Part shown: positions 3,580 through 35,659 of the stretch, one piece after another | Position numbering within the stretch: the stretch's first letter is position 1 | Layout of the letters: every line of letters begins with the position of its first letter | NCBI GenBank assembly: GCA_044432645.1 | Contig: JAWXUM010000008.1 | Location: 1,056 to 65,055 of the forward strand | Length of the DNA: 64,000 nucleotides | Direction: 5' to 3' | Origin: Clostridia bacterium | Lineage (GTDB): Bacteria; Bacillota; Clostridia; Oscillospirales; Acutalibacteraceae | The notes under the pieces: model-generated | Told to the model about the DNA's origin: nothing | Database searches by the model: none | The model's input: the letters and a program-made list of their open reading frames with translations, nothing else | Program-made: the position numbers and the translations under genes

Positions 3580-3623
3580 TGCCGTTTTAGTTTGCGTTTT
3601 GTTTTTGATAGCGTATAAAATTC

Positions 3624-3929: not shown

Positions 3930-3963
3930 AAGTTCCTTTCTGCGTAAATATATGGTTTGCGTT

Positions 3964-4044
3964 CTTAAGGGGTTCGGGTTCGCCCGACAAGCTGTGTTCG
4001 CCGTATAGGCGAATGCTATGCTTGCCTCTCTTGTAAGAGAGTTT
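3964..4044. promoter_or_regulatory. Putative oriT (two hairpins just upstream of mobC)
   Basis: TTCGCC-gtata-GGCGAA (3997-4013) and CTCTCTT-gt-AAGAGAG (4026-4041) flank ATGCTATGCTTGCC. Locally GC-rich. Conserved at 27215-27295. Confidence 0.5.
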
Positions 4045-5375: not shown

Positions 5376-5731
5376 AAAATTTAAACAAGAGTAACGTCCT
5401 AATTAAAAATCCTTTCTCTAACGCCAAACAAATTCGCAAACTGTGGCTCATGAGCCTTGTCTGTGATTTTAAGTTAGTTGGGGTGGTATCCTTACCCTAA
5501 GAGCGAATAATAAATCGACAAACTCTGACTTAGGTCTTGTCAACTACTCTAAAAACACGTTGTTAGTCCTTGCGTAATAATAGGCAAAAAGCATTTTAAT
5601 TATGTGTTATATTAGCTTAAAATATCGTATATTATATAATTTTGTTTATTATAGCAATAGAACTAAAAAAATATATATGTTATAATTACACTGTGCAAAA
5701 AGAACATCAATTCAAGTTTAAGGAGATAGTT

Positions 5732-6808: not shown

Positions 6809-6833
6809 GTTTAATAAGTGAAAGGATGGTTCA

Positions 6834-7640: not shown

Positions 7641-7642
7641 GT

Positions 7643-8440
7643 ATGAAAAAATATTTAGTTATATATTTTAAAAGACAAGGTTATAACATAGCAACCGAAC
7701 TGCAATATCGTGCTAACTTCATATCAACACTAATTACTGTATTTGCACAGCCAATAACAATGATTTTATCGTTCTATATAATCACAAGTCAGTTTGAAAC
7801 CTTTGCTGGCTGGACTTTTTTTCAAATGTCTTTTATTTATGGAATTTGGAGATTAGGACATTCAATATCAATATCATTTTTCCAACAAGGCTGGGATATA
7901 GGAAATTTTGTAAGAAATGGTGAATTTGATAAATATTTAGTTAAACCTTTAGACCCACTATTTCAATTGTTTTGTATTAGGTATCAGAAAATAGGATTTC
8001 CACATTTTATTTCTGGAATTGTAATTGTTGCATTTTGTTCGGTAAAGCTTAACTTAACTTTTTCTGTTTTAGATGTTGTTTTTTTAATAATAACTGTTTT
8101 GTCCGCTGCTATTATCGAAATGTCTGCAACTTTATTGTTTTCGTCTTTTTCCTTTTGGATAACAGATGCCAGTAATATCTTAAGAGTAGCATTAAACACA
8201 AATTATGAATTAATGCAATATCCTATAAATATTTATAATGATGTTTTAAAAGGTGTTTTAACATTCATTCTTCCTTATGGATTTATGAGTTTTTACCCTA
8301 GTTATCATTTTATTACTAATGGAGATGAACTTTCTAATATTTTCATATATGGTTCTCCAGTAGTAGCATTGATAATAGCAATAGTTGCAAGAAGCGTGTT
8401 TATGTTGGGAATTAAACATTATAATAGTACAGGTACATAA
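7643..8440 (+). CDS. ABC-2-type transporter permease (second subunit)
   Basis: 265 aa polytopic membrane protein. SD AGGAGG. 2-nt gap from the previous gene. Confidence 0.72.
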   Translation: MKKYLVIYFKRQGYNIATELQYRANFISTLITVFAQPITMILSFYIITSQFETFAGWTFFQMSFIYGIWRLGHSISISFFQQGWDIGNFVRNGEFDKYLVKPLDPLFQLFCIRYQKIGFPHFISGIVIVAFCSVKLNLTFSVLDVVFLIITVLSAAIIEMSATLLFSSFSFWITDASNILRVALNTNYELMQYPINIYNDVLKGVLTFILPYGFMSFYPSYHFITNGDELSNIFIYGSPVVALIIAIVARSVFMLGIKHYNSTGT

Positions 8441-8454
8441 AAGGAGTGTGAGAT

Positions 8455-9435
8455 ATGTCAGTTATAAAAGTTGAAAATTTAAATAAAACTTATAAAACAC
8501 GAATGGTTTCAAAGGGTTTAAGTGGTGGTTTTAAAGGTTTGTTTGAAAATAAGTATGCGTATAAAAAAGCTGTGGACGATATTAGTTTTTCTATTGAAAA
8601 AGGTGAAAAAGTTGGGTATATCGGACCTAACGGTGCTGGTAAATCCACTACAATTAAAATGCTAACTGGTATTTTAACACCTACATCGGGTGATATTATG
8701 GTTTCTGGACTTGTTCCATATAAAAAAAGAAAAGAAAATGCAAAACATATAGGTGTAGTTTTTGGTCAAAGAAGCCAGCTTATGTGGGATTTGCCACTAG
8801 AAGAATCTTTCGATATGCAAAGATATATCTTTGATGTTAGCAAAAATGATTATATAGATAGACTATCTTTTTTCAGAAAAACATTTGAGCTTGATGAATT
8901 CTTACGCAAACCAGTTCGTCAATTGTCTTTAGGTCAGCGTATGAGGGCAGAAGTTTGTCTATCTCTTATACATAATCCTGATATAGTATTCTTAGATGAG
9001 CCTACTATCGGACTTGATGTTGTATCTAAAGAAACTATCCGTGATTTAGTTAATAATATGAATAAGAATAATGGAACTACATTTATACTCACCACCCACG
9101 ACATGCAAGATATAGAGAAAACTTGTGACAGGGTTATGATTATTGACAAAGGCAAGTTAATGTATGATGATAATATCGAAACATTAAAAGAAAAATTTGG
9201 TAACAATAAATCTATAACAATTGTTTTGGAAGATATGGCAGAAAAAGATAAATCTATATATGAGCAAGAAGGTTTAAAAATAGAATATATCGATAAAAAC
9301 AAGATTACATACAGGTTATTAGGCTCAATTCCAGTAGAGCAAATTATAGCTACGCTATTCTCAAAACTAAAAATTAAAGACATTTCTATATCAAACGATA
9401 GTGTAGAAGATATAGTGAAAACTTTGTATGTTTAG
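8455..9435 (+). CDS. ABC transporter ATP-binding protein (COG4586-like)
   Basis: Walker A GPNGAGKST, signature LSLGQRMR, Walker B IVFLDEPT. Confidence 0.9.
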   Translation: MSVIKVENLNKTYKTRMVSKGLSGGFKGLFENKYAYKKAVDDISFSIEKGEKVGYIGPNGAGKSTTIKMLTGILTPTSGDIMVSGLVPYKKRKENAKHIGVVFGQRSQLMWDLPLEESFDMQRYIFDVSKNDYIDRLSFFRKTFELDEFLRKPVRQLSLGQRMRAEVCLSLIHNPDIVFLDEPTIGLDVVSKETIRDLVNNMNKNNGTTFILTTHDMQDIEKTCDRVMIIDKGKLMYDDNIETLKEKFGNNKSITIVLEDMAEKDKSIYEQEGLKIEYIDKNKITYRLLGSIPVEQIIATLFSKLKIKDISISNDSVEDIVKTLYV

Positions 9436-9450
9436 TAAATCAAAATACAT

Positions 9451-9490
9451 AAAGCACCTACTAATAAATTTTATTGGTAGGTGCTTTTTT
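9451..9490 (+). terminator. Rho-independent terminator of the oxidoreductase-ABC operon
   Basis: AAAGCACCTAC / GTAGGTGCTTT stem followed by a T-run. Confidence 0.8.
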
Positions 9491-9593
9491 GAAAATCAAA
9501 ACAAAATAAAATATACTTTTTAATATATAGCAAATCGTATAAAACAAAAGAACAACCATCTCTGATTGTCCTTAAAAGTTGTGTGATTTAATT

Positions 9594-9862
9594 TTTACAG
9601 TATCCAGACCCTCGGTTCACATTCCCACCTTAAGAGCATATACCTGAACCTATGACCTTCGGGTTATGAGCTTTGCTATAAGCGAAAAATTCAGTGTTTA
9701 TGGGAGTTTATAGCACTTTTTAGTCCATAAAATTGCCAAAAACCCGAGTGTCATTTCCACCCAGTCCACTGTTTCCGTCCCAGTTTTTCCTATTATGGGT
9801 CAAAACATGGGTCAAACCTTAAAAGTAATAAAGTCTAGTTTAATTTTTAATAAAAATAAGTT
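9594..9862 (+). repeat. About 270-bp dispersed repeat (U270), copy a
   Basis: Near identical to 34368-34637. Contains segments homologous to parts of the serine-recombinase elements and tandem ATGGGTCAA iterons (9794-9815). Confidence 0.8.
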
Positions 9863-9896
9863 CTCAAAATTTGCTATGCTGTAAACAAAGAAAGAG
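9863..9896 (+). repeat. Cassette-boundary site, copy 1
   Basis: CTCAAAATTTGCTATGCTGTAAACAAAGAAAGAG. Confidence 0.85.
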
Positions 9897-9923
9897 AATT
9901 TATCTTCTTGATAGCATTTTTAA

Positions 9924-10394
9924 TTATTTTAAACCAAATTCAATCTTTAAAGAGTTATATCTATCTTTTTCATGTGGTGATACTTCAAAAAATGGATTAT
10001 ATATGCAGTGTTGCATAACGTCGGCATCAATTAAAACTTCATCAAAAGAGCTATGTTTTATACCTTTACTGCTGTGATTATATATTGCTGAGCATATTTG
10101 CTCTATTTCTTTTTCGGTGAATAAAGATAATTTTTGCAAGATTTCTTTCGCAATAACTGAGCCTTTGTGTGCGTGGTTTGTGCTGTCTAAAGTAGAATAA
10201 ATGTAAATGTCATGGAGCATTCCAGCAATAGTGGCGAGTTCCACATCTTCATTTCGTTTCATTGCAATTAACGTGCAAACTTGGGATACACCATATAAAT
10301 GAATGTAAGCAGCTCTTTTTTCTTCATTGTTTGGAATATTAAATATCACTTGGTCAACGTATTTTCTTACTTCTTCAATTCTATTCATAAGCAC
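9924..10394 (-). CDS. HD-domain phosphohydrolase
   Basis: 156 aa with H...HD motif (GMLHDIYIY). The track start is GTG. ATG at 10388 behind GAGGTG is the more likely start. Confidence 0.8.
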   Translation of the reverse strand: MLMNRIEEVRKYVDQVIFNIPNNEEKRAAYIHLYGVSQVCTLIAMKRNEDVELATIAGMLHDIYIYSTLDSTNHAHKGSVIAKEILQKLSLFTEKEIEQICSAIYNHSSKGIKHSSFDEVLIDADVMQHCIYNPFFEVSPHEKDRYNSLKIEFGLK

Positions 10395-10429
10395 CTCACT
10401 AAATTATATGTTAATTTTATTGCATGGCT

Positions 10430-10463
10430 CTCAAAATTTGCTATGCTGTAAACAAAGAAAGAC
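10430..10463 (+). repeat. Cassette-boundary site, copy 2
   Basis: CTCAAAATTTGCTATGCTGTAAACAAAGAAAGAC. Last base overlaps the stop codon of 10463-11035. Confidence 0.85.
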
Positions 10464-11035
10464 TATTTTCTAAGCTTATCATATTGCACAACAGTTTCAC
10501 CAGTTTTAAGATTAATTTTTTCTTTATATAATAAGGTATATCTTATCTGACCTTTGGTATAATCTCTGTTGGTTTTTGGAAAGAATGAGCGACAGAAATA
10601 TGTATTATCCTCATTTTTAGAAATAAATATGTAAATATCGTTAGATTCCAACGGAGTTGATAGTAAAAAATCGGCTTGAATAAACGAAAAGGCATTAATT
10701 TTTTCATTGTATCTAAAAACTAAATTGTTATTATCTAGGATTTTTTCAATGTTGGCAAGTGGGATAAATCTATCTTCAATTTGAGAAATAAACTCACTTG
10801 TAGATATTTTTGCATAAGTTAATTTGTTATTAATAATGTCTGTGAAAACCTTAAAACGATTTTGATTAGCAACTTCTAAATCTCTAAGTTTAACAAGACC
10901 CATTAAATGATGAAACTGTGAAGAAAGAAACCTAATTCTAAGTTCAATTTTTTCACCTTTTCGCCCTAAAACAATTTTGTATTCAGTATGGGTAAGATTT
11001 TCAAATGCTTTTGCACACGCCAATAGTTTGTCCAT
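10463..11035 (-). CDS. Putative PBECR4-like (barnase/EndoU/RelE-fold) nuclease, paralog A
   Basis: 190 aa with an FHHLMGL motif. Paralog at 34671-35243. The family assignment is from memory and is tentative. Confidence 0.55.
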   Translation of the reverse strand: MDKLLACAKAFENLTHTEYKIVLGRKGEKIELRIRFLSSQFHHLMGLVKLRDLEVANQNRFKVFTDIINNKLTYAKISTSEFISQIEDRFIPLANIEKILDNNNLVFRYNEKINAFSFIQADFLLSTPLESNDIYIFISKNEDNTYFCRSFFPKTNRDYTKGQIRYTLLYKEKINLKTGETVVQYDKLRK

Positions 11036-11228
11036 AAAATTCCTCTCTGTATAAAGAAAGTCGCCTTGCTTTCACAAGACGACTAACAATAGCGTTTTCT
11101 TTCGGTATTACTACCTACATCGGTTCGAGGTTGCCACTCAACCCATCCGTAGAGCTCCATACAACAAGGCGACCGATACCCCCTTGCATATCAACACTCA
11201 AACAGACACACAGTCGTTGCCTGTTGTT
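11036..11228 (-). ncRNA. Structured 5' leader RNA with intrinsic terminator (copy A)
   Basis: Promoter TTGACA-N17-TAATAT. Conserved 5' block, covarying helix (11172-11177 with 11119-11124). Terminator hairpin 11059-11084 plus U-run directly before the SD. Confidence 0.6.
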
Positions 11229-11234
11229 ATTATT

Positions 11235-11263
11235 ATATTACACTATTATAGCAAATATGTCAA
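11235..11263 (-). promoter_or_regulatory. Sigma-70-type promoter of leader A
   Basis: -35 TTGACA (11258-11263), 17-nt spacer, -10 TAATAT (11235-11240). Identical arrangement at 35439-35467. Confidence 0.6.
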
Positions 11264-11272
11264 CGAGTTTAG

Positions 11273-11302
11273 AAAAATTTGCTATGCTGTAAACAAAGAG
11301 AG
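11273..11302 (+). repeat. Cassette-boundary site, copy 3
   Basis: AAAAATTTGCTATGCTGTAAACAAAGAGAG, 5 nt from the stop codon of 11308-11607. Confidence 0.8.
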
Positions 11303-23130: not shown

Positions 23131-23496
23131 AATTATATATGGGTCAAATGAAAATGTCTGCTTTTTTGGGTACGGTTTATTTCCCGTATGGGTCAAGTTA
23201 TGGGTCAGGGGTTGATTTATTTGAAAAAGGGTAAAAAAATAAAGGCTATTTAGTTAAATAAAAAGGTGGAAGCTTTTTATTATCGAGGAGCGTTGTCAGT
23301 GAAGAACCGACAAGTTTCTGCCTAAATAGACTTTATTTTTTATACAATTTAAACAAATTGTATAAGCTTTATGAACTTTGAGATAAAAATAAAGCTTACA
23401 TTATGCAAGCTTTACTTTTAAAAAGTTTGGTTGCGGAGATAGGGATTGATGTTGTATGCTCTTAGGGTTGGAACTTGACCCCCTACCACTTTTTAA

Positions 23497-25161
23497 TTAG
23501 ACAGCTATTTTTAATTGTTTGTGTTTTTCTTTAGCGATTTGGATTATATTCTTTTGTGGTTGACCGACAAGTCCTATATCTCTATAGTAAATCCACACGT
23601 CTTGAACTGTGTTTCTTTTGGATTTTTCTGGTCTTTCTTCGACTATGATTTTATCTACGAAAGTTCTTAGTATTTCGCTTGTCAGCTCATTGATATTGGT
23701 GTATTTTTTAGCTTTTTCAATGAACTTTTCGGTGTCTTGCATTGCGCCTTCAAGTTTTTCAATTTGCTCTTTTAAGTCTGGAAGTGAAGTTTTAATCTCT
23801 TTTTGTTCTTGGTTATAGCAAGTCGATAGCATTTGGAATTGTTCGTCTGAAATCTTGCCTAGCACATTATCTTCATATGTCTTTTTGAACAATACTAGCA
23901 GTTCGTTATCTCGCTTTTCTAATTTAGAAACTTGTTTGTGTAGCTTGCTAAGTTCCTTTTTAGTTTCAGCATTGCTTTTATCGATTATGAACTTAACAAA
24001 CTTTTCTTCGTCTTGCCTTGCAAAATGTGTGACTCTTTTGATTTCATCAAGCAACATTGTTTTCAAATGTTGCTCGCTAATTCTGTGAGGTGTGCATTCT
24101 TTACTGCCATATTTTCTGTTTGTAGGACACACGAAATAGCATTTGCCAGTCTTGTTTTCCCGTGTAAATGATAGTGGTTTTTCGCAGTTGTTACAGAACA
24201 CCATACCAGAAAACATATTTGGAATTGACTCGCCTTTTGCGGGTCTTTTTCTGTTTTTTCTAACATTTTGGCAGATTTCCCAAGTATCTTTGCTGACTAA
24301 TGGCTCGTGTGTGTTCTCAAATTTAACCCATTCATCTTCTGGTTTTACAATATGCTTTTTGTTTTTGTAGGACAAAGTTGAATACTTCAAACTTACCGTA
24401 TTTCCAATGTACACTTCGTTATCCAAAATTTGAGCAACTGTTTTTGATGACCAATGATAGGGGTGTTCGATGTCGATATTGGTGAGTTTTACATCGGTTA
24501 TACTATAATAGTAGTTGCTTGGAGTGAGAATTTGCATTTCTTCAAGCTTATTTGCTATTATCTTAGGACCACAACCATCCATACATAATTTGAAAATTAG
24601 CTTAACATTGTCGTCAGTGTCTGGGTTTGGAACTATCATTTTGATGTCATGATTATTCATATAACCATAAGGAGCTCTGCCAGAAACCCTTTCGCCACGT
24701 TCAGCTTTTGCCTTTATTACAGCTTTGATTTTCTTGCTACAATCTTTTGCATACCATTCGTTGATGATGTTTTTGAATGGTGTGAACTCATTGTCACCTT
24801 TGGTACTGTCAACTCCGTCATTAATTGCGATAAATCTTACTCCATAACTTGGGAAGTCAATTTCAGTTAGCTTGCCAACTTGTAAATACTCACGACCTAG
24901 CCTTGACATATCTTTTACGATCAGCGTTGAAACTTGGTTGGTTTCAATCAAGTTCATAATTTCCATCCATGCTGGTCTTATAAAGTTTGTTCCTGAATAT
25001 CCATCATCACTTTTGATTACGATATTTTCAAAACCATGCTCTTCTGCATATTTTTGAAGTAACATTTTCTGATTTTGTATGCTGTTTGACTCACCGAAAC
25101 TTTCATCTTCTTGACTTAATCTTGCGTATAAAATTGTATATTTTTGTGTTGTACCTTTCAT
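23497..25161 (-). CDS. Large serine recombinase (copy 2)
   Basis: 554 aa, same architecture as 245-1909 with scattered substitutions. Confidence 0.93.
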   Translation of the reverse strand: MKGTTQKYTILYARLSQEDESFGESNSIQNQKMLLQKYAEEHGFENIVIKSDDGYSGTNFIRPAWMEIMNLIETNQVSTLIVKDMSRLGREYLQVGKLTEIDFPSYGVRFIAINDGVDSTKGDNEFTPFKNIINEWYAKDCSKKIKAVIKAKAERGERVSGRAPYGYMNNHDIKMIVPNPDTDDNVKLIFKLCMDGCGPKIIANKLEEMQILTPSNYYYSITDVKLTNIDIEHPYHWSSKTVAQILDNEVYIGNTVSLKYSTLSYKNKKHIVKPEDEWVKFENTHEPLVSKDTWEICQNVRKNRKRPAKGESIPNMFSGMVFCNNCEKPLSFTRENKTGKCYFVCPTNRKYGSKECTPHRISEQHLKTMLLDEIKRVTHFARQDEEKFVKFIIDKSNAETKKELSKLHKQVSKLEKRDNELLVLFKKTYEDNVLGKISDEQFQMLSTCYNQEQKEIKTSLPDLKEQIEKLEGAMQDTEKFIEKAKKYTNINELTSEILRTFVDKIIVEERPEKSKRNTVQDVWIYYRDIGLVGQPQKNIIQIAKEKHKQLKIAV

Positions 25162-25247
25162 TTTTACCTCTTTCTTTTGGTGTGGGAGGTTTCAGGTACT
25201 GAATACTGTAATTCAATTATACTCTAAAACCTCGCACAAGTCTATTA

Positions 25248-25499
25248 CTATTTACTAAAGTCACTGTCAATTATTTGAATAATTTTCTCATCAATAGCGA
25301 TTAAATTTTCAGTAGGGAAAACCGAGTGAATTCGGTATCCTTTCCCATCAATATCCATATATCTGTGCGAATAACATTTGTCTTTATATTTTTGAAGTTT
25401 GCTGTCGGTGAATTTATCATCAACAATTTCCGTTGTTTCATAAGCTCCAAAAACCTTGTTTTCTAAATAATATTTTGCTTCGTTTTGTATCTCTCTCAT
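25248..25499 (-). CDS. Hypothetical 83-aa protein (copy 2)
   Basis: Homolog of 1997-2248 with the same TAATG coupling. Confidence 0.6.
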   Translation of the reverse strand: MREIQNEAKYYLENKVFGAYETTEIVDDKFTDSKLQKYKDKCYSHRYMDIDGKGYRIHSVFPTENLIAIDEKIIQIIDSDFSK

Positions 25500-26830
25500 T
25501 AAAATCCTCCCATTTTCATATCGTTTATTGGTGTGTAATCTATTTCGTTTTCTTGTTCTTGTTTTATAGTTTCAATGTAATTTTCTACATCTTCATCGTT
25601 TATGTCGTTTTCATTTTTCAATTTTAACCACTCAATTAATAGGTAAACACCTGCTATTGTCAAGGCTGTTATTTCGACCATTCCTAAAATTTCAGCCATT
25701 TCATCATCTTCATTTTCAGCTTGTTCAAGTCTTGTAATTGACCACATCAAGTTTTTGGTTAAAGTCCTAGTTGGTGTTTGATTAGTAAAAAAGTTATTAG
25801 ACCTGTCAACATTATGAAGTTTAGCAGAATTATTCCTATCGCTATTTTCAAGTTGGAACAGTTCTTCTCGTTCAGCTTCCCATCCTGTTGTTGATTCTTC
25901 TGTAATATTTCTATCATCTGTTTGAGTTCCTTGAGCTCCTGATAGTATTGATGTCGGTTCTCTAGTTGTTCCACCTTGTAATTTATCGAGTGTATTTTCT
26001 CTTGTGATTTGTTCAGCATATCCACTATCAACTGCTGATTGTCGAATATATAATCTATATTCTGCTCCGTCCATTTGCAACTGCTCGGCTTGTTTAAATC
26101 TTTCAATTTGTTCAATTCTTTGTTGTCTAAGTTCAAATTCTCTCTCCATTCTAATTTTCAAATATCGTTCTTGGTGTAGTTTATTATCTCGGCATTTCAT
26201 TCCGTTTGGACAAGTATAGGTTATGCTTTTTCTGTTTTCTTCCCATTTGACTTGATAGCCATTGGACTGCATTAATTTTTTGAAATGCTCTTTAGATTTT
26301 GAAAACCTCATGCAATCATCTATTGTGTTTATCAGTTTAAATTTCCAACTTTCGCCTTTTAAAGCTGAACGATATTCTTTGCTAGACATTTGATTTTCTC
26401 TTTTATTTTTTGAGTAAATCGTGAGAGGTATATCGCCAAATTTCAAACAAATCTCATCGTTTATTTTTCTGTTATTAACTAAATCGTCATGATTTTGATG
26501 TAGTTTTTTACCTGTTTCAAAGTTTACTGAGTTGATAATTATATGGTTGTGTAGATTTTCAGTGTTTTGATGGGTTGAAATAATTGCTTCAAAATTAGGG
26601 AATTGTTTTGCTACAAACTCTAATCCGATTTGATTTATTTGTTGTGGTGTAAGGTTTGTATCTGACGGAAACGACTGAACAAATTGATAAAACATTCGTC
26701 CGTTGTTTTTTCTAAACTGGTTTTTGGTTGTTATCATTTCATCAAATGCTGATGGCACTAAACAGTTAAATCCAGTGTTTAGACCTTTGGTTTTCTCCAT
26801 GTCAAGAGCATAGGTTATACTCTTAAGCAT
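25499..26830 (-). CDS. Relaxase/mobilization nuclease (copy 2)
   Basis: HQNTENLHNHIIINS motif. Homolog of 2248-3579. Confidence 0.88.
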   Translation of the reverse strand: MLKSITYALDMEKTKGLNTGFNCLVPSAFDEMITTKNQFRKNNGRMFYQFVQSFPSDTNLTPQQINQIGLEFVAKQFPNFEAIISTHQNTENLHNHIIINSVNFETGKKLHQNHDDLVNNRKINDEICLKFGDIPLTIYSKNKRENQMSSKEYRSALKGESWKFKLINTIDDCMRFSKSKEHFKKLMQSNGYQVKWEENRKSITYTCPNGMKCRDNKLHQERYLKIRMEREFELRQQRIEQIERFKQAEQLQMDGAEYRLYIRQSAVDSGYAEQITRENTLDKLQGGTTREPTSILSGAQGTQTDDRNITEESTTGWEAEREELFQLENSDRNNSAKLHNVDRSNNFFTNQTPTRTLTKNLMWSITRLEQAENEDDEMAEILGMVEITALTIAGVYLLIEWLKLKNENDINDEDVENYIETIKQEQENEIDYTPINDMKMGGF

Positions 26831-26874
26831 TGCCGTTTTAGTTTGCGTTTTATTTTTGATAGCGTATAAAATTC

Positions 26875-27180
26875 CTATATAATCACCTCCGATATATTGT
26901 TGATTTTTGAATGAACTAAGCTTAATTCGAGGATCATGTTTTCTAAATTGATTGAACTAATTTTACCCATATTGGCTAAAGTTGTAAGCTGATTTAGGTT
27001 TCGTCCAATAGCTTTTAGTTCGGTTGTTAGCTGTGACAATCCGTCTATCACAACTATTGGTTTATCAAGTGCTTGTCTTGTGAGATATTCTGTTGTTGTC
27101 AAATGAGCTTTTTTAGCTTTCGACTTGATTTTATTAAGGTCGTTTTCGTTAATTCTAAATGCAAAGTTTTTGTTTTTCAT
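26875..27180 (-). CDS. mobC: MobC-family protein (copy 2)
   Basis: Identical in sequence to the 3624-3929 product. Confidence 0.85.
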   Translation of the reverse strand: MKNKNFAFRINENDLNKIKSKAKKAHLTTTEYLTRQALDKPIVVIDGLSQLTTELKAIGRNLNQLTTLANMGKISSINLENMILELSLVHSKINNISEVII

Positions 27181-27214
27181 AAGTTCCTTTCTGTGTAAAT
27201 ATATGGTTTGCGTT

Positions 27215-27295
27215 CTTAAGGGGTTCGGGTTCTCCCGACAAGCTGTGTTCGCCGTATAGGCGAATGCTATGCTTGCCTCTCTTGTAAGAGAGTTT
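27215..27295. promoter_or_regulatory. Putative oriT (copy 2)
   Basis: Same two hairpins as 3964-4044. Confidence 0.5.
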
Positions 27296-27481
27296 TCGCT
27301 AGTTTTGTTCGGTACATCTAAAGCAGTTCCTAACCGAGAGTTTCACTCCGTTGTATTCTCGCTCGCTCTTGCTGGAGGTCATGGCAACATATCACCTTTA
27401 GCCGACTCATTCAATTTTCAATCTGATATAGATAATGTAAAACATATACTATATTTTCTATTATTATTTTAACAAATTTAC

Positions 27482-27510
27482 TTGACTTCGTAAATAGAAA
27501 ATGAGATAAT
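27482..27510 (+). promoter_or_regulatory. Promoter of the copy-2-specific cargo gene
   Basis: TTGACT-N17-TGaGATAAT. Confidence 0.6.
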
Positions 27511-27563
27511 AAACACGCATACTCTATTAGCCAAAATACATTATCTATTGGGAGGTAAATATA

Positions 27564-28535
27564 GTGGCACAGTTTTTTAAAGATTTATTTCATTCAAATA
27601 ACGGATTTTTTGAGTTTGATGTTCTTTTTGGAAATTCTGATATTAAAATAAAAGAAAACAGTTATAGTTACGGACAACTTGTGGTAGAACTTTTGAATTT
27701 TGATTTTACAGAATTCAAACAAATTATGAGTGAAAATTCTACTTTTGAGCAAAAAAAGAAGGTAGCTTTAACGCTACCTGTGTACAGAGATTTTTATTAT
27801 GAAGATGTTTCTTCTTTTGTTGAAAAGTTTAAGGATGAAGAATTTATAGAAATGTTTTCAGGCAATAAAATTATCGAAGATGATTTTGATAAAATATTAG
27901 AAAGTATTACTTTTATTGAAAAATATCGCTGGTTTTTAGATGAGGTGAATTACAGAAAAGAAAAGAATTTTATTCATCAAATTAATATGAATGGTTTTGC
28001 TGCTTTTGTATCGGATAAAACTTTACGATCTACAAACGAGTGGGAAGCCACTATGTCAAAAATTCAATATACATTAGTGGAAGATGAAAATGGAAACTCA
28101 CAAATTTTTGAACAGATTACGTTTAATAATTTGATTGACTTTTTCTACACGGATTTTTACAAAGGGATTATGAGAGAGTCTGTTCCTAAAAAATGCAGAC
28201 TATGTGGCAAGTATTTCTTGCAAGAAAAAGGCTTTACATATGAATACTGTAATAATATTTATGAGGATAACAAGACTTGCCGAGATGTTGGTTCGACTAA
28301 AAGTTTTAAAGAAAAAACAGCTAATAACGAAATTTGGAAAATTCATCAAAGGGCATACAAAAAATATTATGCAAGAATAGCTAAAAAGAATATGACACAA
28401 AAAGATTTTCTTGATTGGGCATCTAAAGCAGAGGAAATTCGAGATAATAATTTACCAATTTACGAAAAAGCAATGGTTCATGGTGAAGATTTTGATTTAG
28501 CAGAATATACTAAACAAATTAATTATATTAAATAA
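27564..28535 (+). CDS. Hypothetical 323-aa protein with a Cys-cluster (zinc-ribbon-like) region
   Basis: GTG start 8 nt after GGGAGG. CRLCGKYF...YCNN...CRD cluster and a basic helical C-terminus. Present only in copy 2. Confidence 0.6.
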   Translation: MAQFFKDLFHSNNGFFEFDVLFGNSDIKIKENSYSYGQLVVELLNFDFTEFKQIMSENSTFEQKKKVALTLPVYRDFYYEDVSSFVEKFKDEEFIEMFSGNKIIEDDFDKILESITFIEKYRWFLDEVNYRKEKNFIHQINMNGFAAFVSDKTLRSTNEWEATMSKIQYTLVEDENGNSQIFEQITFNNLIDFFYTDFYKGIMRESVPKKCRLCGKYFLQEKGFTYEYCNNIYEDNKTCRDVGSTKSFKEKTANNEIWKIHQRAYKKYYARIAKKNMTQKDFLDWASKAEEIRDNNLPIYEKAMVHGEDFDLAEYTKQINYIK

Positions 28536-28877
28536 AAAGTCAATCACTGACACCAATGACGCCACTGACACGAGATTTTGGGAGTGACAGTCGCTGAAGT
28601 TTAACGTCATTGCTGTGTTTTTTAATTATGCATATCCAAATCATCCTTTCTAAATTTTAAAAAAGTGGGAGCAATATTCATATTACGAAACAAGTAGTTT
28701 TTTACCCTCTACTATATAGGACAGTTGTAGAGAGTTTGTAAACCAAAATTATTAAATTTTATTGCAGACACGAAAAATATGATGTTCGCTCTAAAAAATT
28801 AACGTCATTGGTGTCATGGTGTCATAGCTTGTTTTTATCAACAGAAAAATATTATACTAATTTTAAGTGTGGTAAGT

Positions 28878-29270
28878 GTAACTGTATGTGATAACTCCAG
28901 TGTTTATCACGTTTTTTGGAATTTGCATGTGTAACTAAAGCGTAACCGAAGTGTAACTGGTAACACATGAGTAACAGTTTGGTAACACTTGTGTATGTGA
29001 TAAAAAGTCAGCTTTCATCAGCTTTTTTAGACTTGGTAACACTTACCACACTTGTTTTAAAGAAAAGCTGTTATATATACAAAAATCTGTCACTACTGAC
29101 ACTTTACAAAAAAGGTCTAGGTTTTAAGCCATTCTTAGGAGATTTATTAGTGACACTTTTTTGTTACTTTACCGACACAAATGACAGAAATATATCGGAT
29201 AAATAACAGTTTTAATTTGCGAAAAACTCAGTGTTTGCAAGGGTTTCTAGGAAAAGTGACAGAATGACAG
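28878..29270 (+). repeat. GTAAC / TGACA[C/G] motif arrays (copy 2)
   Basis: Homologous to 4981-5375. The 79-aa track ORF 28967-29206 is generated by these repeats. Confidence 0.7.
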
Positions 29271-29471
29271 AAAATTTAAACAAGGGTAACATTCTGTATA
29301 AAAATTTTCTCCTGACCTTTTTCTAACGCTCAAATAAAGTCACAAACTATGGCTCACGAGCCTTGTCTGTGGTTTTAAGTTAATAGTAGCACCTAATACC
29401 TCCAACTCGAAAAAGAAAGATCCAACACAAAAATACACAATTTTACAAATAATTTATATAAGATTTGACTG

Positions 29472-29511
29472 CAAAAAACACCGATACATACAACATTCTA
29501 TATGTATCGGT
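29472..29511 (-). terminator. Terminator of the SHOCT operon
   Basis: ACCGATACATA / TATGTATCGGT stem. U-run on the minus strand (plus-strand A-run 29473-29478). Confidence 0.7.
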
Positions 29512-29525
29512 ATTAAAAATGATTA

Positions 29526-30149
29526 TCAACTTTCTTGCATATCTTCTATTGAAAATAATTTACTTTGTTTGTAAACAATACCTGTTTTGTCTTTAATATT
29601 ACTTAAATACAGGCTTTCTAAAATAAATAATGCACCTAAAGCGTATGTAAGATTTTTTTGATTAGCGCGAATATAGTTTGGTTTTCCATCTTTGTAATGA
29701 GAAGTCCGTTCGTGTTTTACCTTATTATATGCTGTCCACCAAAATGGTGTTTCTTTTCCTTGAATCAAACGATATCTTAACGCATTATTTTTATCATAAT
29801 ACTTTTCATACTTCCAATTTGACCAAGGACAAAATTGATAATCTGCATTAAAAACAACTGAAATTGTTTCAATATTCGGGAATTCTAAATGCAGATGATA
29901 TCCCCATTTTTGTATAGTCTTATTTTTAATCTTTTTAAATTCTATATCGAATTCCTCATCTAATATTTTAGCAACGACATCTATTTCACTGCAGATTGCT
30001 TGAAGTAATTTCAGATATTCAACAGAATATGTTTCAAAGTTAGAACAATCAAACTCTACAAACCGTTTAGTGCCTATAAACTGTTCCTCCAGCTCTAAAA
30101 AGTAATTCCAATAACTTTTTATAAAAATATTTGTATTAGTTTTCGACAT
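29526..30149 (-). CDS. Hypothetical 207-aa soluble protein (WWTAYNKVKHER motif, possibly HEPN/Abi-like)
   Basis: Last gene of the operon. The motif resembles the RNxxxH-type HEPN motif but has Y in place of R, so the assignment is weak. Confidence 0.4.
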   Translation of the reverse strand: MSKTNTNIFIKSYWNYFLELEEQFIGTKRFVEFDCSNFETYSVEYLKLLQAICSEIDVVAKILDEEFDIEFKKIKNKTIQKWGYHLHLEFPNIETISVVFNADYQFCPWSNWKYEKYYDKNNALRYRLIQGKETPFWWTAYNKVKHERTSHYKDGKPNYIRANQKNLTYALGALFILESLYLSNIKDKTGIVYKQSKLFSIEDMQES

Positions 30150-30161
30150 AAATAGTGCCCT

Positions 30162-30836
30162 TTACAAACCTAAAATTTGCTTTTTCTTTGTATTAAATTC
30201 TTCTTGTGTTAAAACACCGGAATCTAGCAGTTCCTTGAGTCTTTTTAATTGTTCAGCATCCCCAACTGCTGCTAACGAGGCAGTAGCAGTTTTAGGTTGT
30301 ACTACATTTTGCTGAGGATTGGCAAGCAAATAGGAAATGGCTTTTTTTACTTCATCACAATTTTCAATACAATGGAAGTTGCTAACATTACCAATAGAAG
30401 AAATCGATATTCCGTTAAACAAACTTGAGTTTAATGCTGTCACTTGGTTTAGAGGAATATTCACGTCTTTTCCACCAGGTAATTTTCCGAAAATGTTCGT
30501 ATTTGTTACTGAAATTTCACTTCCTTCAGTTGTTTTCTTCATAATAATACTAACAACAAACGCAATTATGGAAGCAATAAAAATGTATCCATACATTAGT
30601 CTAAAAGAGAAGAACTCTCCAGTGAAATAAGCCCAGAAATCATAACGATACCCAATAAAATATGGCCACCATCCACCGTTGCCAAATGCTAGATAAAAGT
30701 ATTTTTCAAGACTCTGATATGCATAATATGAATATAACAATGCGCCAAAAAAAGCGACAATTGATATGATAAACATAATAGATGCAACTTTGTTTTTTTT
30801 AGGTGTTCCTTTAATTACAATATTTCCATTTTCCAT
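30162..30836 (-). CDS. Membrane protein with C-terminal SHOCT domain
   Basis: 224 aa. N-terminal TM helices. C-terminal LKRLKELLDSGVLTQEEFNTKKKQILGL. Confidence 0.75.
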   Translation of the reverse strand: MENGNIVIKGTPKKNKVASIMFIISIVAFFGALLYSYYAYQSLEKYFYLAFGNGGWWPYFIGYRYDFWAYFTGEFFSFRLMYGYIFIASIIAFVVSIIMKKTTEGSEISVTNTNIFGKLPGGKDVNIPLNQVTALNSSLFNGISISSIGNVSNFHCIENCDEVKKAISYLLANPQQNVVQPKTATASLAAVGDAEQLKRLKELLDSGVLTQEEFNTKKKQILGL

Positions 30837-30851
30837 ATTATTTTACCCTCC

Positions 30852-31550
30852 TTATAAATCAAGAATTTGTTTTTTCTTTGCATCAAATTCTTCTTGAGTA
30901 ATCGTACCACTATCAAGAAGCTCTTTGTACATTTTCAATTTGTCAGCACCACCAATAGTGTTATTAGATGCCGATGATACTGGAACTACGTTTGGATTGA
31001 ATACAGCATATTCGTTTGTGGGCTCTTCTACAGAAGGAAACCCATTTCCTCTCAGCCATAGTCCAACAAAAATGAGTGCGACTACTTCAACAACACCAAT
31101 CAACATTGATTTCCATACATAAGATATATAATCAAAGTATTCATAACTAATCCAACCAATGATATTACCAACCATCATTACCAAACTAGGGATAAACCAC
31201 ATTTTTTTGACTATATCATTTCCATTCAAAGCAAAAATGATGATAAGAACAAGAGCGCCTATGGCAATAAAAATAAATAGATCCCAAAGGCTAAAATTAC
31301 TGATTAAATAGTAGATATTAAGCAGCGTATATGCACTAGTAACAAAAATAATCGCCTTAGCGTTTTTTATATAAAGTGTTGTTGCAAAACCAATCAAAAT
31401 ACTCCAAGATAAAATATTCAATACTGTAATTGATGCATACTCATAGTTGCTTACATAGAGGATATTATTGATTATGTTGTAAACAGCTGTGATTGTGTAG
31501 CATATAGCTGCTATCAAAGCATATTTTTTTTCGTTATCTGTGTTAGTCAT
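30852..31550 (-). CDS. Polytopic membrane protein with C-terminal SHOCT domain
   Basis: 232 aa, about 6 TM helices. C-terminal LKMYKELLDSGTITQEEFDAKKKQILDL. Confidence 0.75.
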   Translation of the reverse strand: MTNTDNEKKYALIAAICYTITAVYNIINNILYVSNYEYASITVLNILSWSILIGFATTLYIKNAKAIIFVTSAYTLLNIYYLISNFSLWDLFIFIAIGALVLIIIFALNGNDIVKKMWFIPSLVMMVGNIIGWISYEYFDYISYVWKSMLIGVVEVVALIFVGLWLRGNGFPSVEEPTNEYAVFNPNVVPVSSASNNTIGGADKLKMYKELLDSGTITQEEFDAKKKQILDL

Positions 31551-31563
31551 TTATGTACCTCAT

Positions 31564-31911
31564 TTACATCAGCTTAAAAAGCTGGTCTTTTTTTGCCTGA
31601 AATTCTTCTTCGGTGATTACACCAATGTCCTTCAATTCTTTGTATTTTTTCAATTCGTCTGCAGCACTTTGTCTTGTGTTAGAAGGAGGCCAATAAGGTA
31701 TGTAAGAAGCTGCATTAATTGGAGTCTGCTGTGCATTTTTATCTGGAATAAAGCTAACATGGATAATGGCAACTATAAATAACATCCAACCATAAAACCA
31801 CCACAAACCAAAACTGTAACCTTTACTTTTTGCGATATTAGCAGGGATAAAGGCAAGACCTGCAGCAATTGCTAAGCTGACAAAAGATGTCATTAACAAA
31901 TAATCTTCCAT
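31564..31911 (-). CDS. Small 2-TM protein with C-terminal SHOCT domain
   Basis: 115 aa. C-terminal LKKYKELKDIGVITEEEFQAKKDQLFKL. Confidence 0.75.
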   Translation of the reverse strand: MEDYLLMTSFVSLAIAAGLAFIPANIAKSKGYSFGLWWFYGWMLFIVAIIHVSFIPDKNAQQTPINAASYIPYWPPSNTRQSAADELKKYKELKDIGVITEEEFQAKKDQLFKLM

Positions 31912-31938
31912 AATTTTTTCTCCTTAATTTCATGAATT

Positions 31939-32421
31939 TTAGAACGAGCTGAAAAGAATTCCATAAAAAATGCCGAGAATAACTGAGATTCCTACTGCAA
32001 CCCAAATGACGACTTTCACACCGTTATTATAATTCTCAACGGCTTGTTTCTTCCGCGTTTCCTCCGCGAAGAAATCACGCTGTATAGAATAATCTCTATC
32101 ACGGATTGTTTGCTGTTCTTTTTCTTCTGTATATTCAAAAATAACCATAGTCCCAGATTGGTTAATCATCATCGGTGCAGAGTATTTTACCATTAATTCT
32201 TCATTTTCAGTGACATGAATAGTAGACTCAGCAAATCCGATAAAAGTATCAAAAGTATGAGATTTGTACATTTTAACAATATGTTCACCTGCTGGAATAT
32301 TAACGACGTTATTAGTCAATGTAAGCTTCCCTATGTTTTTTCCGTCAATATCGAAATATACATCGCCACCGAATATTTCAATCTCCTTTTGAGTTCTTTT
32401 AAGAAATACAAGTTTTGCCAT
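31939..32421 (-). CDS. Hypothetical 160-aa protein, beta-rich domain with a C-terminal TM anchor
   Basis: ORF with tight operon spacing. Degenerate paralog at 32522-32860. Confidence 0.6.
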   Translation of the reverse strand: MAKLVFLKRTQKEIEIFGGDVYFDIDGKNIGKLTLTNNVVNIPAGEHIVKMYKSHTFDTFIGFAESTIHVTENEELMVKYSAPMMINQSGTMVIFEYTEEKEQQTIRDRDYSIQRDFFAEETRKKQAVENYNNGVKVVIWVAVGISVILGIFYGILFSSF

Positions 32422-32521
32422 AATATTCTCCTTAACGCATTACCACTAGATTGAAGCTTCCAAAATGGCAAAAGAAATAGCTTCTATGATATCTCATACA
32501 ATCCAGATGATTATGCCTGTA

Positions 32522-32860
32522 TTATTTTTTCATTTTGTTCCTTCTTTCGATTACCGTATGTGCATAATCGTGAGTGGAAATAATCATATTACCAGGTTGA
32601 TTGACCGCCATCGTAGCAATTTATCGAAACATAAGGTTTTCGTTTTTGTCAATATCAATTGTCGATTCATAAAAACCGATAAAAGTATTACAGTTATGAT
32701 GCTTTTATATCTTAACAGTATGCTTACCCAGTACCACTTCAAATTCTTGATTAACAAGAGAAAGCTTACCGATATTTTCGTTATCAGTATCGAAGAAGAT
32801 ATCTTTGTCAAATGCTTCCATTTTTTGCTCGTTCCGACATGAAAACACTAACTTTGCCAT
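32522..32860 (-). pseudogene. Paralog of 31939-32421 with two in-frame TAA stop codons
   Basis: Reads MAKLVFSCRNEQ...HTVKI*KHHNCNTFIGFYESTIDIDKNENLMFR*IATMAVNQPG. Stops at 32705-32707 and 32621-32623 both align with Tyr in the intact paralog. Confidence 0.7.
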
Positions 32861-32878
32861 TTGCGTAAACATGGTCGC

Positions 32879-33283
32879 TCAAAGATTTTCAGCTAACGAT
32901 TTGAGTTCTTCAATTGGCATTTCCTTTCCTTGATATACCTTTGTTGTCTGAGCACTTCCAACTTCTTCAACCTTCATATAGACGGCACCTACATTTTTGC
33001 CACTAGCTTTTTTACCGATTGCATTAAACAGACCTGCCGTAGTTAGTACACTTGCTTTGTTGGAAGAAAATCCAGAAAGATCAGCTGTAGTGGCTGAGAG
33101 GATAGCTCCACACTTGTCACATAGGAAAAGTGTACGATTGCCCATCATTTCCATCTTATCTTTTAGTTTCCAATAAGGCTCATGTGTGCCACACATAGGA
33201 CATTTAGGAAATTTTGTGTCAATGAATTTCTGCGGGATACTACCAGAAAATCCATCGCATCGTCTAAAATCAAACATTCCCAT
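32879..33283 (-). CDS. Zinc-ribbon protein (CPMC...CDKC), first gene of the operon
   Basis: 134 aa. SD AAGAGG. Start lies 50 nt from the left inverted repeat of the invertible promoter. Confidence 0.65.
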   Translation of the reverse strand: MGMFDFRRCDGFSGSIPQKFIDTKFPKCPMCGTHEPYWKLKDKMEMMGNRTLFLCDKCGAILSATTADLSGFSSNKASVLTTAGLFNAIGKKASGKNVGAVYMKVEEVGSAQTTKVYQGKEMPIEELKSLAENL

Positions 33284-33333
33284 AATAATACCTCTTTCTT
33301 ACTTGATTTTTTGTATTATTAAATCAGCTATTT

Positions 33334-33518
33334 TCAAAATGTGTACTTTTTGATTATTGTTGGGAAGTAGTATTGGAATTTGATTTGTTTTTTTATGAAG
33401 ATAAAATCGAATAATTATACATAAAAAATTAACAGAATATTAAAAAAGTATTGACTTCAATTATTTATAGTGCTAAAATATTAATAATAAAACAGCTGTC
33501 AAAAAGTACACATTTTGA
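33334..33518. promoter_or_regulatory. Invertible promoter element (inverton) with Hin/Gin-type crossover sites
   Basis: Perfect 20-bp inverted repeats TCAAAATGTGTACTTTTTGA (33334-33353) and its complement (33499-33518) enclose 145 bp carrying a strong promoter. The half-sites resemble hix (ATCAAAAA). Confidence 0.75.
33451..33479 (+). promoter_or_regulatory. Promoter inside the invertible segment (currently facing right)
   Basis: TTGACT-N17-TGcTAAAAT (extended -10). Confidence 0.65.
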
Positions 33519-33524
33519 TAGCTG

Positions 33525-34148
<624 letters not shown>

Positions 34149-34367
34149 TCAATATATATTTATTATAAATTAAAAGAACAAGTACGAATAACGAACTTGT
34201 TCTTTTAATTTTATTATATTCAATTTTACTGCACAATTGTAATTATTTTCAATTATCATTATATGTAAATCCTTTCGCTGTTATTAACAAACAAGAGTAT
34301 ATCATATTAATGTTATAATAGCTAGATTAATAATAAGACAATATTTATGAGTTTATTAGCTATAATA

Positions 34368-34637
34368 TTTTACAGTATCCAGTACCCTCGGTTCACATTC
34401 CCACCTTAAAAGCATATACCTGAACCTATGACCTTCGGGTTATGAGCTTTGCTATAAGCGCAAAATTCAGTGTTTATGGGAGTTTATAGCACTTTTTAGT
34501 CCATAAAATTGCCAAAAACCCGAGTGTCATTTCCACCCAGTCCACTGTTTCCGTCCCAGTTTTTCCTATTATGGGTCAAAACATGGGTCAAGCTTTAAAA
34601 GTAATAAAGTCTAGTTTGATTTTTAATAAAATAAGCT
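34368..34637 (+). repeat. U270 repeat, copy b
   Basis: Near identical to 9594-9862. Confidence 0.8.
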
Positions 34638-34671
34638 CTCAAAATTTGCTATGCTGTAAACAAAGAAAGAC
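34638..34671 (+). repeat. Cassette-boundary site, copy 7
   Basis: CTCAAAATTTGCTATGCTGTAAACAAAGAAAGAC, identical to copy 2. Confidence 0.85.
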
Positions 34672-35243
34672 TATTTTCTAAGCTTATCATATTGCACAAC
34701 AGTTTCACCCGATTTAAGATTAATTTTTTCTTTATATAATAAGGTGTATTTTGTCTGACCTTTGGTATAATCTCTGTTGGTTTTTGGAAAGAACGAGCGA
34801 CAGAAATATGTATTATCCTCTTTTTGTGAGATGAATATATAAATATCATCCTCGTTTAGCGGAGTAGATAAAAGAAAATCTGCTTGTATTAAAGAAAACA
34901 TATTAACTTTTTCGTTGTATCTAAAAATAATGTTGTTATCGTCAAAGAGTTTTTCAATATTTGATAATGGGAAAAATCTATCCTCAATTTGAGAGATATA
35001 TCGACTTGTACAAATTTTATCATAAGTAGTTTTGTTCGAAATTATAGAATTAAATACTTCTTCACGATTTTGTCTTGCAACTCTTAAATCTTTTAGTTTA
35101 CCCAAACCTATTAGATGGTGAAAATCCCATTTTGTAAACACAATATTTAAGTCAATTAAATTTTCTTTTCTGCCTAAAATTATATGATATTTAATATTTA
35201 ACAATTTTTCAAACGATTTTGCACACGCAAATAATTCATCCAT
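34671..35243 (-). CDS. Putative PBECR4-like nuclease, paralog B
   Basis: Start moved to MDELFACAKSF (SD GAGGGA). C-terminal 70 aa almost identical to paralog A, N-terminal half diverged. Confidence 0.55.
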   Translation of the reverse strand: MDELFACAKSFEKLLNIKYHIILGRKENLIDLNIVFTKWDFHHLIGLGKLKDLRVARQNREEVFNSIISNKTTYDKICTSRYISQIEDRFFPLSNIEKLFDDNNIIFRYNEKVNMFSLIQADFLLSTPLNEDDIYIFISQKEDNTYFCRSFFPKTNRDYTKGQTKYTLLYKEKINLKSGETVVQYDKLRK

Positions 35244-35432
35244 AAACTTCCCTCTCATATTAAAACAGTCGCCTTGCTTTCGCAAGACGACTAAGGTGCA
35301 TTTTCTTTCGGTAAAACCTACTCCGACTTGAGGTTATTGCACAACCCCTACTGAAAGCTAGGCATAACAAGGCTTGTCGGTACGCTATTATGCTTCATCG
35401 CTTAGACAGACACACAGTCGTTGCCTGTTGTT
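35244..35432 (-). ncRNA. Structured 5' leader RNA with intrinsic terminator (copy B)
   Basis: Same promoter, 5' block and terminator (35267-35292) as copy A. The central helix is 35376-35380 with 35323-35327. Confidence 0.6.
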
Positions 35433-35438
35433 ATTATT

Positions 35439-35467
35439 ATATTACACTATTGTAGCAAATATGTCAA
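35439..35467 (-). promoter_or_regulatory. Promoter of leader B
   Basis: TTGACA-N17-TAATAT. Confidence 0.6.
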
Positions 35468-35659
35468 CGAGTTTAGAAAAATTTTGAGTTAAAAAATACT
35501 GGTTATTCTTTGTTAGATTTGCGAATAGAAATAATATTAATTTAGTGGTATAATTAATATATTATAATTTAAATTTATCCTTTGTGAAAAACTATTTTTC
35601 TAGTGTGACTGTGGATTCGAATTTTTTAATTATAAATTTTTATTATAAGGGAGATTAAT

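Follow-up and report, generated by a model that had tools for sequence, protein, structure and literature searches.

A predicted invertible promoter beside a Sin-like serine recombinase in a Clostridia bacterium, with related switches in gut and rumen Clostridia

A 145-bp segment that carries a predicted promoter and is bounded by two perfect inverted repeats lies just past the stop codon of a small serine recombinase gene in a 64-kb stretch of DNA from a Clostridia bacterium (contig JAWXUM010000008.1; the whole stretch of 64,000 nucleotides (nt) is referred to as the window). We consider this element to be a functional promoter inverton, that is, a phase-variation switch, with a probability of about 0.85. 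The observations behind this reading are the anatomy of the locus, its conservation among related loci, sites that stay inverted despite varying cores, a quantised spacing between the sites, and flipped alleles in relatives.

Results

Two perfect inverted sites flank a predicted promoter

The 20-mers at 33334-33353 (TCAAAATGTGTACTTTTTGA) and 33499-33518 are 100% complementary, inverted, and separated by 145 nt. Each is near-palindromic (TCAAAA(T/A)GT - GT - AC(T/A)TTTTGA), with 9-bp half-sites around a 2-bp core. The first-pass annotation of the window had reported perfect 20-bp inverted repeats, each an imperfect palindrome, and this was confirmed. With up to three mismatches allowed, the repeat has only these two copies in the window, and none of 100 dinucleotide-preserving shuffles gave two matches, which excludes the pair as a chance feature. 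The parts of the locus are as follows.

33499-33518: recombinase-proximal site, TCAAAAAGT-AC-ACATTTTGA on the + strand, 9-bp half-sites and 2-bp core
33334-33353: distal site, a perfect inverted copy of the proximal site, core GT on the + strand
33354-33498: invertible segment, 145 bp, AT-rich, with phased A/T tracts
33451-33479, + strand: predicted sigma-A-type promoter, TTGACT-N17-(TG)c-TAAAAT, aimed at the 3' end of the recombinase gene (OFF)
33491-33536, + strand: predicted OFF-state exit terminator, a hairpin with a 14-bp stem (33491-33526, -18.3 kcal/mol) followed by TTATTTTTTCTT
33525-34139, - strand: small serine recombinase, 204 amino acids (aa); Pfam Resolvase PF00239, E=3e-26, residues 4-147; PHROG 'DNA invertase', E=1e-52

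The promoter, which had been proposed from inspection of the letters, was also returned by a promoter scan. The recombinase gene does adjoin the right-hand repeat, with 6 nt between its stop codon and the proximal repeat (7 nt had been claimed). As expected of a promoter inverton, the promoter lies inside the segment and a co-directional gene lies past one of the repeats. Inversion in silico places the -10 element at 33373-33378 and the estimated transcription start at about 33365, which leaves 82 nt to the ATG at 33283. The annotated ON placement is therefore sound, with a distance somewhat greater than the roughly 70 nt originally given. A ribosome-binding site, GAAAGAGG, precedes this ATG. 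The predicted ON junction is AGCTATCAAAATGTGTACTTTTTGATTATTG, and the two predicted ON-state junctions read …AACAGCTA-TCAAAATGTGTACTTTTTGA-TTATTGTTGGG… and …AAAACAGCTG-TCAAAAAGTACACATTTTGA-AAATAGC….

Interiors are flipped between identical flanks in relatives

We scanned metagenome contigs for a gapped two-site pattern and obtained 120 loci, which fall into 77 clusters. In one cluster of 14 members, identity among the members is 100% over both 120-bp flanks and 99-100% over the interior, but the interior stands in one orientation in 9 members and in the other in 5 (e.g., L116 vs L118, L093 vs L177). The members are L143 (7666-7823), L091, L093, L094, L110, L116, L118, L134, L151, L162, L166, L177, L188 and L207. 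The gene that follows the switch encodes a protein of 1123 aa that has a signal peptide and SLH repeats. This gene could be located in 13 members; the promoter points toward it (ON) in 5 and away from it (OFF) in 8. A second case is the pair L056 and L057. The two have the recombinase 3' end and the cargo gene in common, and their outer flanks are 90% and 97.5% identical. The 119-bp interiors align only as reverse complements, at 84-87% identity.

It should also be noted that the 14-member cluster lies on a high-GC chromosome, with sporulation or housekeeping genes on one side of the switch and the SLH gene on the other, and that no recombinase gene is present within the flanks examined. Recombinase-less switches make up 32 of the 120 metagenome loci (within L090-L209), counting only those with at least 800 bp of flank on both sides. 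This suggests that recombinases of the family may also act in trans. The window holds one switch only.

Contig ends give a further indication. Among the 80 genome loci described below, 13 contigs stop within 200 bp past the recombinase gene, compared to 0-1 in each of the following bins and 3 in the corresponding bin on the upstream side. Such breaks are what would result from mixed orientations in the populations sampled.

The two-site layout is conserved in a family of switches

Scanning one genome per species yielded 80 loci with recombinases 64-79% identical to that of the window, nearly all of them in metagenome-assembled genomes of Clostridia from gut and rumen. Recombinases with their own promoter switch are spread across Lachnospiraceae, Oscillospiraceae/Acutalibacteraceae, Erysipelotrichaceae and others. 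In at least 52 of the 80 loci, the recombinase stop codon is followed by a site, 85-235 bp with a sigma-A promoter, an inverted site and a co-directional cargo gene. The first site (TCAAAAnGT-NN-ACnTTTTGA) lies 2-90 nt past the recombinase stop and the second 104-253 bp further on, centre to centre; sites in the family are 20-24 bp long. All interiors carry a TTGnnn-N17-(TG)nTAnAAT promoter that ends about 21 nt from one end of the segment, and any extra interior length is always upstream of the -35 element. A co-directional open reading frame (ORF) starts 15-210 nt past the distal site in nearly all loci.

The central dinucleotide differs among loci and is of nine types (GT, AC, AA, TT, CT, TC, AG, GG and GC), while the half-sites and the flanking GT/AC are nearly constant. 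Even so, the two cores are reverse complements of each other in 52 of 52 pairs. Since the half-sites are palindromic, it is the core that sets the polarity of the sites, which is always inverted. This pattern fits a serine recombinase that would be blind to the identity of the 2-bp overlap yet would need the overlaps to match after a 180-degree rotation. Two inverted sites, each with half-sites around a 2-bp non-palindromic core, are also what Hin/Gin-type systems have. One locus, L014 (1933-2086), has the palindromic core GC in both sites; such a core cannot set polarity and therefore both inversion and deletion would be allowed there. On contig JBGUUB010000053.1, two recombinase-plus-switch units (L018 and L051) lie several kb apart, both with AA/TT cores. 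No loci with three or more sites were found. Viral contigs scanned with the consensus site gave 5 matches.

The cargo ORFs are diverse. Among their products are surface proteins with collagen repeats, Cna_B, LRR or dockerin domains, SPFH and zinc-ribbon proteins, HerA, bacterial SEFIR, PbeA and type IV restriction enzymes; a sigma-70 factor and acetyltransferases also occur. Upstream of the family recombinases, housekeeping genes prevail, and therefore the cassette is not confined to mobile elements. In the consensus assemblies of the family, the promoter points toward the recombinase in 73 loci and toward the cargo in 14.

Sites are separated by whole helical turns of curved DNA

Centre-to-centre distances between the sites fall into discrete classes of 104, 115, 124-127, 134-137 (21 loci), 145-147, 156-157, 165-169, 176-177 and 187-191 bp. 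The sites of the window, with centres 165 bp apart, belong to the 165-169 class. The periodicity of the distances peaks at 10.25-10.5 bp with a phase near zero (R=0.77; 0 of 20,000 uniform simulations reached this value), although many loci are related and are not independent events in this statistic; the nine-class ladder stands on its own. Therefore, the sites are separated by whole helical turns. In 151 distinct interiors, AAA/TTT tracts recur preferentially 10-11, 21 and 31 nt apart, with troughs at 5, 15 and 26 nt. Phasing of this kind is a signature of intrinsically curved DNA. We also looked for a third recombinase site in the interiors; half-site hexamers are only about 2-fold enriched and their position is not fixed.

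The proximal site is part of a predicted OFF-state terminator

In the sequenced orientation, the transcript from the switch promoter is predicted to start near 33486 on the + strand and to meet the hairpin at 33491-33526 at once. Three parts make up the stem of this hairpin: the inner flank, which moves together with the promoter, the palindromic proximal site, and the outer flank. It is followed by a T-run, TTATTTTTT, which is the complement of the C-terminal lysine codons of the recombinase. After inversion, the exit hairpin toward the operon is weaker (about -10 kcal/mol for the hairpin construct) and is not followed by a U-run.

The same contrast is found across 81 distinct switches. The OFF exit has a mean of -19.2 kcal/mol and a U-rich tail and is terminator-like in 52% of cases, compared to -11.1 kcal/mol, no tail and 4% for the ON exit (Wilcoxon, p-value ~1e-11 to 1e-12). 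The first-pass annotation had the promoter pointing right, antisense into the recombinase gene. The orientation is correct, but read-through is doubtful. Because the OFF promoter faces a predicted strong intrinsic terminator made from the recombination site, antisense transcription probably does not extend through the recombinase gene, as judged from predicted folding.

The recombinase is resolvase-like

The 204-aa protein has the catalytic residues R8, S10, D67, R68 and R71, which align with those of gamma-delta resolvase and Sin, then a GRP arm after the catalytic domain and a helix-turn-helix-like C-terminal tail. A serine catalytic domain combined with a C-terminal helix-turn-helix is also the domain layout of Hin/Gin-type enzymes. 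Against a database of solved structures, bit scores were 109 for Sin, 84 for gamma-delta resolvase, 73 for Tn3 resolvase and 57-58 for Gin. Pairwise identity to Gin is 32%, compared to about 50% for plasmid resolvases of Staphylococcus, Enterococcus and Bacillus annotated as 'recombinase family protein'. By sequence, the protein thus falls outside the Hin/Gin/Cin/Pin group, with Sin and Firmicute plasmid resolvases nearer. It is also not a member of the Mpi family (NCBIfam NF009949; 43.8 bits vs a cut-off of 272). The C-terminal domain alone gave no meaningful match to solved structures, and sequence does not tie this DNA-binding domain to Hin. The higher Sin and resolvase scores, the low identity to Gin and a score far below the Mpi cut-off all indicate that the enzyme forms a Clostridial branch of its own among the resolvase-like small serine recombinases, one that would have turned invertase. 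The label 'Hin-type' given to the switch is thus apt, by analogy, for function and site layout, but not for the ancestry of the protein, which is Sin-like.

The family numbers at least 8,000 database proteins, and the exact protein of the window is recorded from a metagenome-assembled genome named 'Clostridia bacterium'. A 20-bp inverted repeat (34167-34211; 95% complementary, 5-nt loop) precedes the recombinase start codon by 28 nt. This hairpin, in the likely leader of the gene, could be a terminator or attenuator that limits recombinase expression.

The operon downstream of the switch is cargo of a mobilisable element

Inversion would direct the promoter into the following minus-strand genes.

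32879-33283, - strand: first controlled gene, 134 aa, zinc-ribbon-like motif; Pfam zinc-ribbon matches are weak and below cut-off
32422-32878, - strand: decayed tandem duplicate of the 160-aa gene at 31939-32421, with an N-terminal remnant (55-aa ORF, 32705-32872), as read from the translation
29526-32421, - strand: five further co-directional genes (160, 115, 232, 224 and 207 aa), three of them for membrane proteins with C-terminal SHOCT domains
29382-34363, - strand: cargo module of recombinase, switch and operon, restricted to the second of two paralogous mobilisable elements

The operon thus has six intact genes from 33283 down to 29526, encoding the zinc-ribbon-like protein, three SHOCT membrane proteins and two proteins without a family match. 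The annotated seven-gene operon is indeed co-directional, with the 55-aa duplicate remnant accounting for the seventh member. No convincing internal promoter or terminator was found in it on the - strand. The last gene (29526-30149, - strand) encodes a 207-aa protein. Its homologues number more than 250, and every one is either unnamed or annotated as hypothetical. The fold of the 207-aa protein is predicted with confidence (mean predicted local distance difference test score, pLDDT, 90.7) and matches one uncharacterised phage protein; comparison to solved structures gave no match.

The two paralogous mobilisable elements of the window (1-11280 and 23253-35484) share a backbone with 78-96% DNA identity that includes a large serine recombinase, a MobA/VirD2-type relaxase, an identical MobC-like protein, a PBECR4 nuclease and a drum RNA. 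Homology to the backbone of the first element ends at 29382 and restarts at 34363, and therefore recombinase, switch and operon are one cargo block. The first element instead carries an oxidoreductase and an ABC transporter. The two drum RNA matches (RF02958) are full-length, at 35293-35403 (- strand; 87 bits) and 11087-11199 (- strand; 82.5 bits), each directly upstream of the PBECR4 nuclease gene and at the end of its mobilisable element. Plasmid and phage collections contained no near-identical DNA.

Discussion

Proposed mechanism

We propose that dimers of the adjacent 204-aa recombinase would bind both 20-bp sites and that synapsis would occur across a short loop of curved DNA, with 165 bp between the site centres. 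The loop would be small and pre-bent, and bending may be needed and possibly be aided by an HU-type protein, in place of the long segment and Fis-bound enhancer of Hin. The window recombinase would then cut at the central GT/AC dinucleotides, and rotation and religation would reverse the 145-bp segment with its near-consensus sigma-A promoter. In the OFF state, the promoter would fire toward the recombinase gene and the transcript would stop within about 45 nt at the hairpin and U-run built from the site. In the ON state, the promoter would lie ahead of the ATG at 33283, at a distance of about 82 nt, the exit hairpin would be weaker and without a U-run, and the six-gene zinc-ribbon/SHOCT operon would be transcribed.

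Evidence against an active switch, and other explanations

Several observations weigh against a working switch in the window. Its three independent assemblies are OFF without exception, namely the window, L211 and the Logan contig L084, which is reported from 8 samples. The ON junction had no matches in the metagenome contig collection. Most multi-member clusters of related switches likewise show a single orientation in consensus assemblies. With 165 bp, the spacing is at the lower bound of its class and about 2 bp below what is optimal in the family. Beyond the promoter and the A-tracts, no conserved third element was found in the interiors and no accessory or enhancer element. The promoter and terminator activities are predictions only. 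Searches for an operon function gave no defence match in PADLOC, only unknown-function families in PHROGs, and only SHOCT and a weak zinc-ribbon in Pfam. The annotated OFF state is accordingly what we find, with the promoter facing the recombinase in the window, L084 and L211. The proposal of a phase-variable switch is strongly supported at the level of the family, with its conserved architecture and flipped relatives, while the window locus itself is OFF in all three assemblies. We regard the OFF-only result as weak negative evidence because the organism is in very few of the searched records and because the family as a whole is biased toward OFF (73 vs 14). A search for contigs that encode one identical recombinase (P0030) returned only three, in a single orientation, and was uninformative.

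These observations could mean that the element is a genuine inverton of which the window copy is locked OFF or flips too rarely to matter, perhaps because its spacing is slightly off phase, because the recombinase is poorly expressed or because a host factor is missing. The uniform OFF assemblies, the missing ON junction and the low-edge spacing all speak for this, and the 20-bp hairpin in the recombinase leader (34167-34211) could limit expression. However, both sites are perfect, the recombinase ORF and its catalytic residues are intact, and an OFF-only consensus is expected even for active switches given the family-wide bias. We consider a locked copy unlikely. Still less likely is that the sites are not an inversion pair at all and serve as a res-like resolution site, an autoregulatory operator or a mere bidirectional terminator. 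It is true that Sin and Firmicute plasmid resolvases are the nearest to the protein by sequence and that the proximal site is part of a terminator-like hairpin. Yet res sites sit upstream of the resolvase gene and have unequal subsites, while here two equal crossover-type sites lie downstream. The cores are mutually inverted in every pair though variable among loci, interiors occur in both orientations within identical flanks, each interior has a promoter, a co-directional cargo gene follows in nearly all loci, and the same switches also occur in chromosomes among housekeeping genes. A role other than inversion is therefore already largely refuted.

We give the least weight, next to none, to a chance repeat pair or to the terminal repeats of a miniature transposable element inserted past the recombinase gene. 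The DNA is AT-rich, 20-bp terminal repeats bound a unit of 185 bp, and some copies have no recombinase close by, all of which such an element could also show. But chance is excluded by the shuffles (0 of 100), and an inserted element is at odds with a post-stop position kept across recombinases differing by up to 36%, with constant half-sites around two hypervariable central positions, with spacing that follows the helical repeat, and with orientation changes that leave the flanks unchanged. A res site, an operator only, a miniature transposable element and chance were thus rejected on the inverted cores, flipped interiors, helical spacing and shuffles. We therefore retain the promoter inverton as the reading of the window element.

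Relation to known inversion systems

Promoters inverted by serine recombinases are textbook knowledge in enterobacteria and Bacteroides. The window shares with Hin/hix, Gin/gix, Cin and Pin a small serine recombinase with a C-terminal helix-turn-helix and inverted sites with an asymmetric 2-bp core. We read the gix sites directly from the Mu record as TTATCCAAAACC-TC-GGTTTACAGGAA and TTCCTGTAAACC-GA-GGTTTTGGATAA. Aligned on the core, the window half-site CTATCAAAATGT (followed by the GT core) agrees with TTATCCAAAACC in the same register, at 7 of 12 positions; with the hix half-site TTATCAAAAACC, the agreement is 8 of 12. The likeness to hix/gix noted in the first-pass annotation is thus sound. 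Hin/Gin-type sites are 26 bp long, compared to 20-24 bp in the window family. To our knowledge, Firmicutes lack Fis. No counterpart of the ~70-bp enhancer of Hin/Gin-type systems was found in the family interiors; unlike those systems, the window has helical-repeat spacing and a curved interior. The Hin segment, which also carries a promoter, is about 1 kb long (PMC2427008), and the Mu G segment about 3 kb, in contrast to 145 bp in the window. Also unlike Hin, the recombinase gene of the window is outside the segment and converges on it.

The Mpi system of Bacteroides fragilis resembles the window in its serine recombinase, its invertible promoters of at most a few hundred bp and its repeats of about 20 bp. 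Mpi switches unlinked to the recombinase gene exist, like the orphan switches here, and Mpi invertons control surface structures, as the window-family cargo also includes surface proteins. The differences are that the repeat motif of the window is not that of Mpi and that most family copies are self-contained, with their own recombinase.

The closest sequence relatives of the window recombinase are Sin (Tn552/pI9789), the beta recombinase (pSM19035) and Firmicute plasmid resolvases. These enzymes use res/six sites upstream of their own gene, with accessory subsites, for plasmid resolution, whereas the window has two identical simple sites downstream of the gene, flanking a promoter. A res/six arrangement would consist of several subsites upstream and resolve direct repeats; here the sites are downstream and mutually inverted, and inversion is seen in relatives. 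According to the titles of papers cited in PMC8493755, the beta recombinase inverts DNA between inversely oriented sites and needs the bending protein Hbsu to do so. The beta recombinase with Hbsu may be taken as a precedent for enhancer-free, bending-assisted inversion in Firmicutes.

Clostridia are also host to the RecV switches of Clostridioides difficile (flgB, cwpV and cmrRST), which are likewise reported to be inversions of promoter or regulatory DNA that give phase variation (PMC5386303, PMC7446863). The enzyme in that case, RecV, belongs to the tyrosine recombinases; its gene lies apart from the switches, and the repeats it acts on are unrelated. A literature search on switches in gut Clostridia returned only these. 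Unnamed inverton groups, one of them tied to a tyrosine recombinase, have been described in Clostridia-like Firmicutes (PMC11892184), and the site motif of the window family was not found in the searched supplements of that paper. Our search for the family or its site motif found no description in the literature within reach, which did not extend to subscription-only papers and supplementary tables.

The principle is the same as in other invertons. What sets this variant apart is the recombinase lineage, the very small, helically phased and curved segment, the predicted built-in state-dependent terminator and the cassette-like spread. Taken further, the loci may represent a large, apparently undescribed Clostridia family of self-contained cassettes, each combining a Sin-like recombinase with an invertible promoter of 105-190 bp. 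Inversion would be enhancer-free, across whole helical turns of curved DNA; the site would double as a state-dependent terminator; the cargo would be diverse (surface, defence, sigma factor, membrane); and recombinase-less copies would be flipped in trans. Such a family would be to Firmicutes what the Mpi regulon is to Bacteroides, though with a synapsis geometry of its own. We advance this wider view tentatively, at somewhat less than even odds.

For annotation, the family provides a rule by which phase-variable genes can be recognised, namely TCAAAAnGT-NN-ACnTTTTGA occurring twice with inverted cores, n x 10.5 bp apart. Switches of this kind front surface proteins, defence genes and unknown membrane operons. 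They pose a mechanistic question, the enhancer-free synapsis of sites only ~137-165 bp apart, and offer a compact one-gene switch of about 800 bp for the engineering of anaerobic Firmicutes. For the source genome, the prediction is that the SHOCT-protein operon on the mobilisable element would be expressed only in a subpopulation.
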